The notes: a model not told the origin generated them from the sequence alone. Shown: positions 9,375 through 14,485, counted from the first letter of the stretch. The stretch is DNA of 64,000 nucleotides from Bacteriovoracaceae bacterium UBA1511 (GCA_002323535.1 DCQT01000033.1:31663-95662), one strand, 5' to 3'. Translations and numbers: made by a program.

Positions 9375-11588
9375 GTGTTAAGAATATTCTTTATCCTTCT
9401 TGTTTTTTGCTCTAGGCAGTCAAATGCACAGCTCTCTTGTCGAAAAAGACCAAATGGAGAAGGGGTTAGATTAGATGTGTCCAGGGATAAGGAAATGGCG
9501 CCAAAGGACAAATCTGGAAGCTCAATAGATGGGTCATTAAAAGGAGCGAAAGTAACATCCCAAGGGTTCATTGGTTCTTGTGCTGGGCATAGTACCTCTT
9601 TACTGATTAAGGCGGCACACCCTGATAAGCCGCAGGTCATTCCCGAGTTAATCCAGGCATGTGACCAGTCGAAGTATGGCACCATTGATGGGAATAACCC
9701 AATGGTTTTGATAGGCTGCCTCGCAAAAAACCCATCAAGAAAATATTGTCCACTAAAGGCAGATATTCCACTGGATGAACAAGTTAAAATTAAGTCAATT
9801 CAGGCATCACGCTCAAAGTTCATGAGCTTATCTCTGCCAGACCAGACAAAAGTAGAGGAGGCACTTAAGAAAGTTTATTTTCAGTTGAACACTGGAATGT
9901 CCTCTGAAACGGCCACTTTATTTTGCGCTAAAAATTTTATCTCATACCTTCCTGAAGGGACGACAGACTCTGAAAGTCTGGGGAGAGATCCTTCGATCTT
10001 ATTAAGGCTCAGACATTACAAGAACCTATTCAAGAACGTCAGTGATCATTATTCAAATATAAATGCCAAAGGTTCAAAAACAAGATTTATAAAATATGAC
10101 ACTGTTCCTTCTAACGAGGTCGAGCAAAATCAACAAATTCAAGAGTTGGCCAAAATGCAAGCTGAAATATCTAATAGGCTTGAACACTGTAAGGCATTTT
10201 CTTGCGCTCCTGGAAATATCAGAAATATAGAGAAGAGCTTCTATTCTTTCAAAAAAAGCATAGATGAATTTAAAGAGTTTCAAAATGATAACAAAGTACA
10301 CCGAGGAGGTTTTTTTGGGCCTTCAGAAGAAAAAGTAAAAGCTTTTAAGCAAAAGGTTTCAACAATTAGAAAAAGTCTCGCTGGATTAGAAAATAGTATT
10401 GTTGCCGAGGGAAAAGGGGTACATAAGGTAAGTCTCGATGTTGCTTTGGTAAAAGCAAAGATGGACAAAACAGAAAACCCTGAATCACGAAAAAATTTGC
10501 TGCGGTATAAATCAACATTAGTTCAACTAGCTGCAGTACCAGTGCCGAAAAGAAGGAGTGAGAAAATTAGATTTCGAAGAAGGTTGAAAGCAGCTTTTAA
10601 AACTACTGCGCAAAAGTTTGGTTTAATTGAAGAAGCTGTTGAGGAAGATTACAAAATAGTAAGATCAAAAATTAAAAAAGGATGTTCGATTGATAGTCTT
10701 GAAGAGATGATTGATGTTTTTCCTATCATTTGTAAAAGCGGAGAAAAGGATGAGTTTTTTGAAAAAGTTAGAAGTGTTTTAAGCCCATTATTTGCCTACC
10801 ATCGGCCACATCGATCGTTTGACCCTTCAATAATATTAGATGTGTTCAAAACTAAAAATGTAGACGCATATACAAGTCGCATCACTTGTGAAGATTCGGA
10901 AAAGTTTAAAGTTCCTATTAAGTCTAAGGACTTTGAATACTTAGATCTTGGGGACTTTTCAAAAGTCCCTAAATTTGAAAAAGCTTTGAAGAATGCTCTA
11001 GTGAGGAAAATTTTAAGAGAAAAAAATCCAAAAATTATTAAGTATATTAAGAAAATTTTTGGATCAAATAAGAAGTTAGTGAAGTGCTTGGGGAAAGATA
11101 CCTCTAAAGCTTGCGCCGCCGCGTTTGATAAAATTGACGTTCATGTTTTGAACAGTTACACCTCAGAGTTCTACCCCAAAATTGTAACAAAAATTCATAA
11201 TAAATACGCAAAAGCATTAAATAAAAATAAAAAAAAGGTTCTCAGGGAAAAGTTAATGTCTCTCAATGAAAATAAACCTGCAGTGCTAGGCATATGCTCA
11301 AGTGTTTTGCACAAAGATCACCGTAGGCCGCCTGCGACTGCCGTATCTACAGGTAATGCAAAAGTTGATGAGAAAAATTGTGGAGCTCACGCATTAACAG
11401 TGATTGGTTACAGGTGTAACAAGGGCAAAGTCGAATATTTATTGCAAAATAGTTGGGGTGTTCGTGCATGTAACCAGTATCGAAGATCTCGTGAAATTGA
11501 GTGTCGCAATGATAAAGACCAAGGTAAAATTTGGATTTCAGAGGGCTTACTATCTAAGGGCGTACTCAACTTGACCCAGCATAAGTAA
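9375..11588 (+). CDS. Secreted papain-like (clan CA, C1-type) cysteine peptidase with a very large insertion between the catalytic motifs
   Basis: GTG start and signal peptide. SQGFIGSCAGHS matches papain QGxCGSCWAFS (Gln63, Cys69). CGAHALTVIGY..EYLLQNSWG matches GGHAVxxVGY..KNSWG (His672, Asn692). Confidence 0.7.
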   Translation: MLRIFFILLVFCSRQSNAQLSCRKRPNGEGVRLDVSRDKEMAPKDKSGSSIDGSLKGAKVTSQGFIGSCAGHSTSLLIKAAHPDKPQVIPELIQACDQSKYGTIDGNNPMVLIGCLAKNPSRKYCPLKADIPLDEQVKIKSIQASRSKFMSLSLPDQTKVEEALKKVYFQLNTGMSSETATLFCAKNFISYLPEGTTDSESLGRDPSILLRLRHYKNLFKNVSDHYSNINAKGSKTRFIKYDTVPSNEVEQNQQIQELAKMQAEISNRLEHCKAFSCAPGNIRNIEKSFYSFKKSIDEFKEFQNDNKVHRGGFFGPSEEKVKAFKQKVSTIRKSLAGLENSIVAEGKGVHKVSLDVALVKAKMDKTENPESRKNLLRYKSTLVQLAAVPVPKRRSEKIRFRRRLKAAFKTTAQKFGLIEEAVEEDYKIVRSKIKKGCSIDSLEEMIDVFPIICKSGEKDEFFEKVRSVLSPLFAYHRPHRSFDPSIILDVFKTKNVDAYTSRITCEDSEKFKVPIKSKDFEYLDLGDFSKVPKFEKALKNALVRKILREKNPKIIKYIKKIFGSNKKLVKCLGKDTSKACAAAFDKIDVHVLNSYTSEFYPKIVTKIHNKYAKALNKNKKKVLREKLMSLNENKPAVLGICSSVLHKDHRRPPATAVSTGNAKVDEKNCGAHALTVIGYRCNKGKVEYLLQNSWGVRACNQYRRSREIECRNDKDQGKIWISEGLLSKGVLNLTQHK

Positions 11589-11624: not shown

Positions 11625-11652
11625 TTGAAAATAACGTACATTCAGTTATAAA
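11625..11652 (+). promoter_or_regulatory. Candidate sigma70-type promoter of the polyamine operon
   Basis: TTGAAA (11625-11630), 16-nt spacer, TATAAA (11647-11652), 30 nt upstream of the ATG at 11682. Confidence 0.35.
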
Positions 11653-11681
11653 TTATTCTTGCAACTTTATGGTGAGATATT

Positions 11682-12620
11682 ATGGTTTTTGAGGGATCAG
11701 AAAAAAAAATCGAAGTAATTGTTAGTCCAGGCGTTGGTGACTTAAGGAAAATGGGAAAGTCTTTTTGGGCAAGAATAGTTTCCAAATGTGACGCTGAAAT
11801 TATATCCGAAATTAAAAACAACCAAGTACATGCCTACCTTCTTTCAGAGTCCAGTTTGTTTGTATGGGAATATTCATTTCTAATGATTACGTGTGGCCGA
11901 ACATCGTTAATAAATTCTCTTATTGAGGTATGTCTGGAGTTTGGAAAAGAAAATATTGAAGACGTGATTTTTCAGCGAAAAAATGAGTATTTTTCTCACA
12001 TGCAAAAAAGTGCGTTTTATGACGACGTAAAAAAAATTGATTCTTTAAAGCCATCAAAAGCTTGGCGACTAGGAAATATTGATGGGCACCATAACTTTGT
12101 TTTTAATTATTCAAAAAACGGAAAGTGGGACGCTGGAGATAAAACATTTGAGCTTCTTATGTACAACTTACCAACTCAGGTAGGGGAGCTTTTAAGAAAG
12201 CAAGGAGTCAGCGCTAAAAGTGTTAGGGATTATTTAGGAGTTGAATCTCTTTTTCAAAACTTTACGATTGATGACTGGGTATTTGACCCATACGGATATT
12301 CTTTAAATGCGATTAGAGACGATTATTACTACACCATTCACCTCTCTCCTGAGGAAAATGGATCATATGTTTCATTGGAGACGAATGATTCAACGCTTGA
12401 GGGGCAAAATATAATCTCTCATTTCTGTGAAAGGCTTAGGCCAAAGAGTTTTGATGTGATTAGTTTTAATTGGCATGAAAGTTATGATTCTGAAATTTAT
12501 CAGCTCGTTGACTCTTGTGAGCAATCTTTGGAAAATGGTTTGGCGGTTAAATTTTGTCAGTATGTTGATACCAAAAACATAAAAAGCTCCAATGGGTATT
12601 TATTATTCGAGCACAAATAA
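11682..12620 (+). CDS. S-adenosylmethionine decarboxylase proenzyme, eukaryote-type (class 2)
   Basis: FEGSEKKIEV, AYLLSESSLFV (pyruvoyl self-cleavage site, human YVLSESSMFV), TCGRT, FDPYGYSLN, and YTIHLSPEENGSYVSLETN (human TIHITPEPEFSYVSFETN). Confidence 0.9.
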   Translation: MVFEGSEKKIEVIVSPGVGDLRKMGKSFWARIVSKCDAEIISEIKNNQVHAYLLSESSLFVWEYSFLMITCGRTSLINSLIEVCLEFGKENIEDVIFQRKNEYFSHMQKSAFYDDVKKIDSLKPSKAWRLGNIDGHHNFVFNYSKNGKWDAGDKTFELLMYNLPTQVGELLRKQGVSAKSVRDYLGVESLFQNFTIDDWVFDPYGYSLNAIRDDYYYTIHLSPEENGSYVSLETNDSTLEGQNIISHFCERLRPKSFDVISFNWHESYDSEIYQLVDSCEQSLENGLAVKFCQYVDTKNIKSSNGYLLFEHK

Positions 12621-12629
12621 AGGATTTTT

Positions 12630-13484
12630 ATGCATTCAAAACTTTGGATTGAAGAAAAACATGAGAATTTTTCACTAGGTTTTAAAGTTAATAAAGTTTT
12701 ATTTTCTGGAAAAAGTGATTTTCAAACAGTTGATGTGGTTGAAACAGAGCAGCTGGGAAACATGCTTTTGAATGATGGCCTTATTATGTGCACGGAAAAA
12801 GATGAGTTTGTGTATCATGATATGATCGCGCACGTGCCGTTATTTGTTCACCCTACCCCTAAAAAGGTTTTAGTCATCGGGGGTGGTGATGGCGGAACGG
12901 CTCGAGAGGTTTTAAGGCATCCAAATGTAGAAAAATGCGTGATGGTTGAAATTGATAAAATGGTTGTTGATGCTTCAATTGCGCATTTGCCGATAACGTC
13001 TTGTGTCTTTGATAATCCAAAACTTGAACTTCACATTGATGATGGCCTGAAATTTGTTAAAGAAACAAAAGAAAAATTTGATGTAGTTTTAGTTGACTCG
13101 ACTGATCCTATTGGCCCGGCGCAGCCTCTATTTGGAGAAGAATTTTATCAAGATATATATAATTGCCTAAATGACGATGGAATTGTTGTGTCTCAAGGAG
13201 AGTCACCATTTTATGAAGTACCGATGCAAAAAAAGTTAATGGGTATTATTAATAAAATATTTCCCATCTCAACCATCTATAATTTTTCAAACCTAACTTA
13301 TCCTGGAGGGCTTTGGTCATTTACATTTGGTTCAAAAAAGCATCATCCGATTAACGACTTCAAGTCAGAGCGGGTTAGCTCTTTTGATGGAGAGTTTAAG
13401 TATTATAACCAGCGAATTCACCCAGGGGCTTTTGCTATACCAAGCTTTATGGCAAAAGAGCTTGAGGGATTAATTAAGGATTAA
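12630..13484 (+). CDS. speE: Spermidine synthase
   Basis: FQTVDVVET, VLVIGGGDGGTAREVLRH and VDSTDPIGPAQPLF. Confidence 0.95.
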   Translation: MHSKLWIEEKHENFSLGFKVNKVLFSGKSDFQTVDVVETEQLGNMLLNDGLIMCTEKDEFVYHDMIAHVPLFVHPTPKKVLVIGGGDGGTAREVLRHPNVEKCVMVEIDKMVVDASIAHLPITSCVFDNPKLELHIDDGLKFVKETKEKFDVVLVDSTDPIGPAQPLFGEEFYQDIYNCLNDDGIVVSQGESPFYEVPMQKKLMGIINKIFPISTIYNFSNLTYPGGLWSFTFGSKKHHPINDFKSERVSSFDGEFKYYNQRIHPGAFAIPSFMAKELEGLIKD

Positions 13485-13487
13485 AAA

Positions 13488-13940
13488 ATGCGTTATTGGT
13501 TAATGAAAACCGAGCCAGATGTCTTTTCGATTGATGATTTGAAATCACAAAAAACGACTCCTTGGGAAGGTGTGCGAAACTACCAAGCGAGAAATTTCAT
13601 GCGTGATGAAATGAAAAAGGGCGACTTGGTTTTAATTTATCATTCAAATGCAAAACCTCCAGGGGTCGCAGGCGTTGGTGTTGTCTCAAAAGAAGCGTTT
13701 CCAGATCATTTTGCCTGGGATAAAAAAAGTAAATACTACGATCCAAAGTCTCCTAAAGAAAATCCACGATGGATGATGGTAGAAATTAGATTTAAAAAGA
13801 AATTTAAAGAGATTCTATCTCTGGCAGAACTTAAAGAGACAAAGGGACTGGAGGATATGCTTATTTTAAGAAAGGGAAATCGTCTTAGTATTACGCCCGT
13901 TGAGAAGAAGCATTACGAACAAATAATAGGAATGAGATAA
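13488..13940 (+). CDS. EVE (PUA-like) domain protein
   Basis: MRYWLMKTEPDVFSIDDL..WEGVRNYQARNFMRDEMKKGDLVLIYHSN..PGVAGVGVV. Confidence 0.85.
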   Translation: MRYWLMKTEPDVFSIDDLKSQKTTPWEGVRNYQARNFMRDEMKKGDLVLIYHSNAKPPGVAGVGVVSKEAFPDHFAWDKKSKYYDPKSPKENPRWMMVEIRFKKKFKEILSLAELKETKGLEDMLILRKGNRLSITPVEKKHYEQIIGMR

Positions 13941-14485
13941 TGGATCAAAAAAAACTGGAAATGATAAAAGATTCAATAAGAACAATCCCAAATTTTCCAA
14001 AACAAGGAATTTTATTTCGTGATATTACAACTGCACTTCAGAGCCCTGAGTCATATAAGGCGATTATCTCTTTGTTTGAGGAAAAGTTAAAAAAAATAGA
14101 GTTTGATGCTATCGCTGGTATTGAGTCTCGTGGATTTGTCTTCGCCTCGGTGCTTAGTTATTTATTTAATAAGAAATTGATTCTTATTAGAAAAAAAGGA
14201 AAGCTTCCTTGTGAGGTAATAAGGCAAGAGTATCAATTAGAGTACGGGACAGACGAGCTTGAAATCGACCCTACTGCAATAAATGAAAACGAAAAGGTCA
14301 TACTTGTGGATGACCTTCTTGCGACAGCGGGAACAATTTTAGCTGCTCAAAAGTTAGTTCATCGTTGCGGGGGGCAAACTCCCCTCGGGCTTTTTGTTAT
14401 TGATCTTCCTGAGCTCGGAGGAGCGAAAAAATTAGAGGAAAATAAACTTCCTTTCATTTCTCTCATAAATTTCGAAGGCCATTAA
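13940..14485 (+). CDS. apt: Adenine phosphoribosyltransferase
   Basis: FPKQGILFRDIT, GIESRGF and the PRPP loop VILVDDLLATAGT. The start overlaps the EVE stop (TAATG). Confidence 0.95.
   Translation: MDQKKLEMIKDSIRTIPNFPKQGILFRDITTALQSPESYKAIISLFEEKLKKIEFDAIAGIESRGFVFASVLSYLFNKKLILIRKKGKLPCEVIRQEYQLEYGTDELEIDPTAINENEKVILVDDLLATAGTILAAQKLVHRCGGQTPLGLFVIDLPELGGAKKLEENKLPFISLINFEGH

Follow-up and report, generated by a model that had tools for sequence, protein, structure and literature searches.

Gene Content of the Locus

The window (the whole stretch of DNA that was analyzed, 64,000 nt from Bacteriovoracaceae bacterium UBA1511) contains, at positions 11682-12620 of the plus strand, a gene whose predicted product is the proenzyme of a eukaryote-type, class 2 S-adenosylmethionine decarboxylase (AdoMetDC). 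This gene, speD, has an ATG start and encodes 312 amino acids (36.1 kDa). A ribosome-binding site, GGTGAG, read directly from the sequence, lies 5 nt upstream of the ATG (11671-11676, plus strand). The gene is preceded by a 93-nt gap, within which falls a possible sigma-70-like promoter (TTGAAA-18-TAAATT; 11625-11654, plus strand). It is a weak candidate, with 9/12 matches in a consensus scan, and such sites showed no excess in the region (8, vs 10 ± 3 in shuffled sequences). A terminator scan gave nothing above chance, and no Rfam family or riboswitch was matched in the speD leader or the operon.

Four plus-strand genes, speD-speE-EVE-apt, form a tight operon with speD at its head. The second gene, speE (12630-13484), starts 9 nt past the speD stop codon and encodes a spermidine synthase/polyamine aminopropyltransferase of bacterial type (284 aa), which scores above the cut-offs of NF002010 (353 bits; cut-off 260) and TIGR00417 (328 bits; cut-off 249.55). 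It is followed after 3 nt by the gene for a 150-aa EVE (PUA-like) domain protein (13488-13940; PF01878, E 7e-57), and then by apt, for adenine phosphoribosyltransferase (13940-14485; NF002634, 216 bits, cut-off 170; TIGR01090, 198 bits, cut-off 186), which overlaps the stop of the EVE gene by 1 nt. The best solved relatives of SpeE are the enzymes of Thermotoga maritima (1inl, 305 bits) and Bacillus subtilis (1iy9), and these outrank all eukaryotic spermidine synthases. Since SpeE is closest to bacterial enzymes, the operon joins a decarboxylase of eukaryote type to a transferase of bacterial type.

The genome as a whole is that of a predatory-bacterium-like organism, represented by a 1.86-Mb assembly of 125 contigs that is 62% complete. 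Elsewhere in it, on contig C2, a gene for biosynthetic arginine decarboxylase (speA; NF003763, 782 bits, cut-off 369) adjoins a gene for agmatinase (speB; TIGR01230, 197 bits, cut-off 174). With both of these above their cut-offs, and with speD and speE in the window, the route arginine to agmatine to putrescine to spermidine is complete on paper, as judged from profile scores. The window's speD is the only PF01536 copy found in a scan of this 62% complete assembly, and class 1 SpeD (PF02675) was not found in a search of the same assembly. There is also a candidate MTA/SAH nucleosidase, which is weak and scores below the cut-offs.

Family Identity, Processing Site and Catalytic Residues

The speD protein matches Pfam family PF01536 (SAM_decarbox) with an E value of 1.2e-53 and 183 bits (gathering cut-off 22.2), and the match spans profile positions 3-314 of 343. 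This was the only family returned in the Pfam scan (E ≤ 0.001), with no match to the class 1 SpeD family, PF02675. A sequence search also retrieved the human AdoMetDC proenzyme structures 1msv/1jl0 (E 1e-32), and in BLASTP the protein is 32% identical to mammalian AMD1 across 274 residues (E 3e-36). Against TIGR00535, the NCBIfam equivalog for eukaryotic AdoMetDC, it scores 120.7 bits, below the cut-off of 233.15. By this score the protein is a member of the superfamily that would be assigned to a divergent subfamily, outside the eukaryote-trained equivalog, which is consistent with a separate bacterial clan (see below).

The sequence blocks that are characteristic of eukaryotic AdoMetDCs are found along the chain as FEGSEK (residues 3-8), LSESS (54-58), TCGRT (70-74), PYGYSLN (203-209), TIHLSPE (218-224) and SYVSLETN (228-235). 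The LSESS block contains the predicted processing site, where codon TCC at 11850-11852 (plus strand) specifies Ser57, the predicted pyruvoyl precursor, and is preceded by GAG for Glu56. The Glu56-Ser57 pair aligns with human Glu67-Ser68 and is invariant throughout the aligned sequences (the Ser57 column comprises 16 bacterial and 15 eukaryote-type sequences), placing an internal serinolysis site in the N-terminal lobe. Cleavage at this point, as predicted from the alignment, would give a beta chain of residues 1-56 (11682-11849, plus strand; 6.3 kDa) and an alpha chain of residues 57-312 (11850-12617, plus strand; 29.8 kDa), the latter carrying Cys71, Phe201, Ser207, His220 and Glu224.

Residues were mapped by alignment with mammalian, amphibian and shark AMD1. 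In human numbering, F7, E8 and E11 correspond to F3, E4 and E7 of the window's protein, E67-S68 to E56-S57, C82 to C71, F223 to F201, S229 to S207, H243 to H220, and E247 to E224. The processing and catalytic set (Cys82, Ser229 and His243) is thus retained as Cys71, Ser207 and His220, and the substrate contacts (Phe7, Phe223 and Glu247) as Phe3, Phe201 and Glu224. Much of this had been anticipated by a first-pass annotation made from the DNA alone. Its call of a class 2 AdoMetDC is borne out by the PF01536 match, the match to the human proenzyme and the full-length fold match described below; its chain of ~310 aa is the 312-aa reading frame; each of the blocks that it quoted was located; and its Glu56/Ser57 site has the codons that it gave. 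Its description of speD as heading a classical bacterial speE operon likewise agrees with the canonical SpeE, above the equivalog cut-offs, that lies 9 nt downstream.

The Putrescine Pocket

Human-type putrescine activation involves a buried acidic pocket that is coupled to the active site via K80, together with S113. The acidic residues of the pocket and its threonine are retained in the window's protein (human E15, D174, T176, E178 and E256 correspond to E11, D153, T155, E157 and E233). Three positions around the site, human K80, S113 and L13, are altered across the bacterial rows aligned. The equivalent of K80 is I69 (Ile or Leu in the other bacterial rows), that of S113 is Q98, and that of L13 is K9, a lysine that is invariant in the bacterial clan. 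Because these equivalents differ, regulation may depart from that of the human enzyme, and the pattern of residues suggests that putrescine activation may be absent, or may be replaced by a built-in lysine. In the structure of potato AdoMetDC, the putrescine pocket is said to be filled by basic side chains. The one that takes the place of human Leu13 reportedly helps to mimic bound putrescine in an enzyme that is putrescine-independent. By analogy, Lys9 may mimic bound putrescine in the manner of the potato arginine, which we regard as a lead and not as a result.

Predicted Structure and Comparison with Known Enzymes

An AlphaFold2 model of the speD protein, built on 16 bacterial homologues, has a mean pLDDT of 89.5 and a pTM of 0.90. 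In Foldseek it superposes on the human proenzyme (1msv/1jl0) over its full length, with TM scores of 0.86-0.87 over 311-320 columns, while class 1b structures (Thermotoga, Aquifex) match one lobe of the model, over ~115 residues. The model depicts a two-lobed alpha-beta-beta-alpha sandwich, that is, a pseudo-dimer of class 1b folds, which is the arrangement that defines class 2.

Human AdoMetDC (AMD1; 1JL0, 1MSV, 1I7B) shares this single-chain, two-lobed fold with the model (TM 0.86), and has in common with the window's protein the E-S cleavage site, C82/S229/H243, F7/F223/E247 and the acidic residues E15/D174/E178/E256. The window's protein differs from it in being only 32% identical and ~20 residues shorter, without the N-terminal loop and the C-terminal tail. 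The putrescine-independent potato enzyme (1MHM) also has a class 2 fold like that of the model (Foldseek TM 0.65/0.78), but its sequence match is very weak (44.5 bits).

Class 1a/1b SpeD proteins (T. maritima 1TLU/1VR7; E. coli SpeD; PF02675) share the chemistry of a pyruvoyl enzyme formed by serinolysis, and the lobes of the model are each comparable to a single class 1b protomer (TM to target 0.63-0.68, ~115 residues). Unlike the window's protein, they are protomers of 120-270 aa, and they have no detectable sequence match to it; in the window's protein one chain replaces the class 1b dimer, the N-terminal lobe being the only one with a cleavage site. The SpeD1-SpeD2 fusions of Desulfotignum phosphitoxidans, Ca. 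Omnitrophica and Victivallis vadensis (PMC10407285) resemble the window's protein in having two SpeD-like lobes per chain. Going by their descriptions they are set apart, being class 1b by sequence (271-318 aa), whereas the window's protein is class 2. The V. vadensis SpeD1-SpeD2 protein has a dead C-terminal lobe and has been suggested to illustrate how class 2 arose (PMC10407285).

The closest known counterparts are the bacterial class 2 AdoMetDCs (Li et al. 2019), which belong to the same family and the same clan, are ~306-320 aa in length and have the same invariant residues. Adjacency of speD and speE is frequent among them, as in the window, but the members that are named or derived from genomes are only 41-59% identical to the window's protein, and gene order can differ, with speE-speA-speD-speB in Shewanella chilikensis instead of speD-speE-EVE-apt.

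Proposed Function

Taken together, the family match, the retained residues and the operon make it very probable that the product of speD is a working class 2 AdoMetDC that processes itself and depends on a pyruvoyl group, and that this enzyme performs the AdoMetDC step of spermidine synthesis. In the proposed mechanism, the 36-kDa proenzyme would cleave itself between Glu56 and Ser57 with the assistance of His220, Ser207 and Cys71, yielding the 6.3-kDa beta chain and the 29.8-kDa alpha chain, and Ser57 at the N terminus of the latter would be converted to the pyruvoyl cofactor. The mature enzyme would then decarboxylate AdoMet, and the co-transcribed, bacterial-type SpeE would move the aminopropyl group onto putrescine, supplied by SpeA and SpeB, to form spermidine. 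The by-product methylthioadenosine would lead to adenine, which might be salvaged by the operon's Apt.

Two other functions were considered. Bacterial class 2 AdoMetDCs are reportedly enzymatically active, some bacterial AdoMetDCs are said to act outside polyamine synthesis, and some are said to accompany an MFS-SpdSyn fusion that has a non-polyamine role. An active AdoMetDC might feed an aminopropylation other than spermidine synthesis, the polyamine-independent role that the title of Li et al. (2019) indicates for some bacterial AdoMetDCs; the conserved EVE-domain gene of the operon, which has no known polyamine role, could be taken in the same sense. We consider this improbable here, since the partner is a canonical stand-alone SpeE above the equivalog cut-offs rather than an MFS-SpdSyn fusion (NF037959, 30 bits, below the cut-off of 40), and since putrescine would be supplied by speA and speB. 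It is less probable still that the protein is a neofunctionalized pyruvoyl decarboxylase acting on ornithine or arginine. Neofunctionalization of SpeD homologues to ornithine or arginine decarboxylases is widespread in bacteria and archaea, with many cases in class 1b (PMC10407285), but the window's protein retains, as F3, F201 and E224, every residue with which the human enzyme binds the adenine and ribose moieties of AdoMet. In addition, speD is translationally adjacent to SpeE, which requires decarboxylated AdoMet; arginine decarboxylation is already covered by speA; and the assembly (62% complete) yielded no second AdoMetDC.

Relatives, Distribution and Gene Neighborhoods

The closest proteins are all bacterial, with identities of 41-95%. 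The two nearest, at 95% and 75%, are metagenome proteins, and the match in a genome of the same genus is 55% identical. Homologues with 41-50% identity occur in Halobacteriovorax, Bacteriovoracaceae, Marinomonas, Shewanella, Endozoicomonas, Ferrimonas, Thalassotalea and Pokkaliibacter, and are labelled adenosylmethionine decarboxylase in NCBI/UniRef records.

A scan with two clan-derived peptide patterns, covering one genome per prokaryotic species, located class 2 relatives in 382 of ~185,000 species genomes. The best 80 of the 382 are from Bdellovibrionota and marine Gammaproteobacteria, with one Myxococcales MAG. In an even sample of the window's own phylum, PF01536 was present in 72 of 301 genomes and in at least ten family codes. 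It was found in 38 of the 72 genomes of the window's own family (f1), 17 of 20 in f13, all 6 in f28 and 5 of 15 in f4, and was not found in three large families of the same sample (f6, 0/30; f9, 0/37; f14, 0/38). The f4 copies lie within open frames of 576-638 aa, and group in the tree with AdoMetDC-SpeE fusion proteins.

Both the class 1 and the class 2 profiles were searched in 24 genomes of the window's family. Class 2 alone was found in 10 of these, class 1 alone in 7, both in 1 and neither in 6, counts that are descriptive only because the relatives are not independent. The classes are nearly mutually exclusive in this family, and give the impression of two alternative ways to carry out one reaction.

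The order speD-speE-EVE is kept in most of the Bdellovibrionota loci examined. The gene apt follows EVE in this window alone; in four other loci it lies upstream, on the opposite strand. Colwelliaceae and Psychrosphaera also have speD-speE, and the SpeE there is 64-67% identical to that of the window. In the S. chilikensis cluster, SpeE is only ~35% identical to the window's, and in most Marinomonas and Ferrimonas loci there is no speE within 4 kb of speD. These varying neighborhoods mean that the class 2 gene is paired with different partners in different lineages. A SpeE-like gene (35-37%) located 5' of speD in Shewanella and Endozoicomonas was considered as a possible MFS-SpdSyn fusion; for S. 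chilikensis this was rejected, the gene there being a stand-alone speE.

Phylogeny

Three maximum-likelihood trees were built, with 103, 162 and 126 rows (LG+C20+F+G4 PMSF, quick search, with SH-aLRT as the only support measure and no bootstraps). The eukaryote rows comprise vertebrates, Candida, a basidiomycete, AdoMetDC-ODC fusions from MMETSP/EukProt, a group containing a brown alga, and ~100 unlabelled representatives at 50% identity, with no plants or kinetoplastids among them. One eukaryote fetch used a padded query with a length filter against bacterial proteins of ~310 aa, and gave only 56 matches, most of them unnamed. An exhaustive search of representatives used a eukaryote profile of 605 positions that retained ODC columns from the AdoMetDC-ODC fusions. 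Its counts (6266 / 3983 / 1474), with fusions dominating the top matches, are not a clean class 2 census. A cluster look-up gave one of the representatives, P0363, as Scytosiphon promiscuus, and in PDB searches two unlabelled groups on the eukaryote side were not plant-like. Two unlabelled representatives, P0370 and P0431, score 238-245 bits against the human enzyme, and the window's protein scores 116 bits.

In all three trees the bacterial sequences, the window's copy among them, form one clan with an SH-aLRT of 100, apart from the eukaryotes, and of the 126 sequences of eukaryote type that were sampled none falls inside it. The stem between the bacterial clan and the eukaryote-type sequences measures 1.4-1.7 substitutions per site. 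Its point of attachment to the eukaryote subtree is a deep node with weak support (63 and 84), which separates a half containing animals and fungi from a half containing ODC fusions and stramenopiles. Since a long branch may end up at a node of this kind as an artifact, the trees are compatible with transfer in either direction.

When the tree is rooted on the eukaryotes, Bdellovibrionota families branch off one after another along the backbone of the bacterial clan, and the window's family lies with gammaproteobacterial sequences in a crown group of 26 rows (support 96). This topology suggests a clan whose backbone consists of Bdellovibrionota and within which the gammaproteobacterial copies are nested. 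In the SpeE tree, Colwelliaceae and Psychrosphaera group with one Bacteriovoracaceae-family genome, G004 (support 96), inside the operonic SpeEs of Bdellovibrionota, a placement which supports the movement of speD-speE as a unit. In an AU test on the AdoMetDC alignment alone, with cleaned rows, a single gammaproteobacterial clade was not rejected (p 0.078). An earlier rejection of gammaproteobacterial monophyly (p 9e-5) was set aside, as three unlabelled rows that fell within the gammaproteobacterial clade had confounded it.

Origin of the Bacterial Class 2 Clan

Some bacteria are known to encode class 2 AdoMetDC, and phylogeny indicates a eukaryotic source (PMC10407285, Li et al., J Biol Chem 2023). 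That paper cites, for the bacterial enzymes, the work of Li, Kurihara, Kim, Liang & Michael (Biochem J 2019; 476:2579). Within this framework, the window's speD would be an ordinary, vertically inherited member of the bacterial clan. The clan would be the backbone of several Bdellovibrionota families, would have been handed on to marine Gammaproteobacteria, and within the window's own family would appear to alternate with class 1 SpeD. In agreement with the published view, the clan would most likely go back to a single ancient acquisition from a eukaryotic donor.

The opposite direction is the rival that survives best. Here the class 2 architecture would have arisen in bacteria, for example in the ancestor of Bdellovibrionota, and then passed to the eukaryotic stem. 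This possibility is suggested by the bacterial clan being nested in no sampled eukaryotic group, with its stem of 1.4-1.7 attached at the deep, weak node, and by the diversity of the clan, which is spread over at least ten family codes of one phylum. The ladder of Bdellovibrionota families that forms the eukaryote-rooted backbone could be read in the same way. Against it, the published analysis infers a eukaryotic origin (PMC10407285, citing Li et al. 2019), and class 2 is near-universal in eukaryotes, as opposed to 382 of ~185,000 species genomes in the two-pattern scan. Moreover, several large families of this phylum gave no match (0/30, 0/37 and 0/38), and long-branch attraction would be expected to attach a long stem close to the midpoint of the opposite group. 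The eukaryote sample, besides, is mostly unlabelled and without plants and kinetoplastids. We therefore regard a bacterial invention as unlikely, and give equally little credence to the corresponding view of the clan as an ancient, Bdellovibrionota-rooted lineage that is sister to all eukaryotic AdoMetDCs, with a direction opposite to the published one. That this organism took up the gene from a eukaryote in recent times, or that the assembly is contaminated with eukaryotic DNA, is hardly credible, since the class 2 architecture is all that speaks for it, whereas the GC content of speD (0.35) equals that of its flanks, the gene forms part of a bacterial operon within a long contig, dozens of related genomes share its gene order, the best eukaryote-type matches reach ~110-120 bits vs 176-676 bits for bacterial ones, and the gene belongs to a fully supported bacterial clan.

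Of the two origins offered by the first-pass annotation, transfer from a eukaryote or an old bacterial class 2 lineage, the evidence fits an old and widespread bacterial clan, with relatives in 382 genomes, which published work traces in the end to a eukaryotic donor; GC content and synteny give no sign of a recent transfer into this organism. The novelty that it implied does not hold, because bacterial class 2 AdoMetDCs have been published and close homologues already carry the name adenosylmethionine decarboxylase in public records. The gene was correctly recognized but is an ordinary find, a routine member of a large published bacterial clan, and by itself it matters little, being one more bacterial eukaryote-type AdoMetDC. 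The group to which it belongs bears on the assembly of the eukaryotic polyamine pathway and on gene transfer between domains. Given a rooted and labelled tree, several features could be useful to the debate on such transfer, namely the Bdellovibrionota backbone, the alternation of class 1 and class 2 in one family, the natural fusions of class 2 AdoMetDC with SpeE, and the sharing of the operon with Colwelliaceae.

Within bacteria, the nesting of the gammaproteobacterial copies and the SpeE tree would fit a history in which Bdellovibrionota were the first bacterial hosts of the class 2 gene and later its donors to marine Gammaproteobacteria, at least once as a speD-speE operon; we give this history roughly an even chance. 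Some of these bacteria have been described as preying on marine Gammaproteobacteria of such kind.

Distribution and possible transfer of the operon

Within the family to which the window's genome belongs, class 1 (PF02675) and class 2 (PF01536) AdoMetDCs are almost mutually exclusive: among the same-family genomes G001–G024, ten carry only class 2, seven carry only class 1, one carries both and six carry neither. The PF02675 matches occur in frames of 258–292 aa, and because of this length they are probably class 1a proteins. The near exclusion of one class by the other suggests repeated non-orthologous replacement of AdoMetDC classes within the family.

The speD-speE pair is also present in Colwelliaceae and Psychrosphaera (loci L061, L062, L067, L069, L076, L081, L084 and L089, compared with locus L004 of the Bacteriovoracaceae-family genome G004), with SpeE proteins that are 64–67% identical to that of the window. 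These sequences cluster with G004 at support 96 in the SpeE tree and at support 95 in the first AdoMetDC tree; a larger AdoMetDC tree, built later, supports the grouping only weakly (56). Based on the SpeE identities and these groupings, the data fit a transfer of the operon between a predatory-bacterium lineage and marine Gammaproteobacteria. A different arrangement is found in Shewanella chilikensis, where the class 2 gene lies inside a complete four-gene polyamine cluster, speE-speA-speD-speB (L036, 1131–5891), and the SpeE is of a lineage approximately 35% identical to the window's protein. The window's own genome carries speB (agmatinase) and speA (biosynthetic arginine decarboxylase) as neighbours on a different contig, C2 (L091, 362–3192), where the two genes overlap by 1 nt, and this pair would supply putrescine to the window's operon.

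Putrescine-activation site

The bacterial class 2 enzymes that were aligned differ from human AdoMetDC at three positions around the human putrescine-activation site. Human L13 is replaced by Lys (window K9, nt 11706–11708) and human S113 by Gln (window Q98, nt 11973–11975), both invariant over the bacterial rows examined, while human K80 is replaced by Ile or Leu in these rows (window I69, nt 11886–11888). The acidic residues of the putrescine pocket are still conserved in the same rows. A built-in lysine may take the place of putrescine in these enzymes.

Fused forms of AdoMetDC

Natural one-chain fusions of class 2 AdoMetDC and spermidine synthase occur in metagenomes (P0244, P0253, P0261, P0264 and P0268; 593–642 aa, domains PF01536, PF17284 and PF01564). 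In addition, class 2 copies of genus g27 (Bdellovibrionota, family f4; genomes G027, G061, G076, G108 and G113) lie within open frames of 576–638 aa. The fusions are scattered over several positions in the tree of the bacterial clan, with P0261, P0268 and the f4 copies near its base. On the eukaryote side, many representatives are AdoMetDC-ODC fusions of about 740–1000 aa (PF01536 with PF02784/PF00278; P0275, P0279–P0281, P0305–P0337 and others), MMETSP and EukProt transcripts among them. In the tree these proteins make up a large group; fusions of this kind are also known in Plasmodium.

Genes flanking speD-speE

In the window, speE is directly followed by a gene for an EVE (PUA-like) domain protein (13488–13940, + strand). 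Most of the Bdellovibrionota loci examined (among L002–L087) share this arrangement, with EVE proteins 53–76% identical to the window's, and the gammaproteobacterial loci in this set have no EVE gene next after speE. EVE domains are usually associated with modified-base recognition; no paper naming them together with spermidine synthase was found in the literature searched. The gene immediately upstream of speD (9375–11588) encodes a 737-aa protein that has no Pfam match and carries papain-like Cys and His/Asn-Ser-Trp-Gly motifs at its ends.
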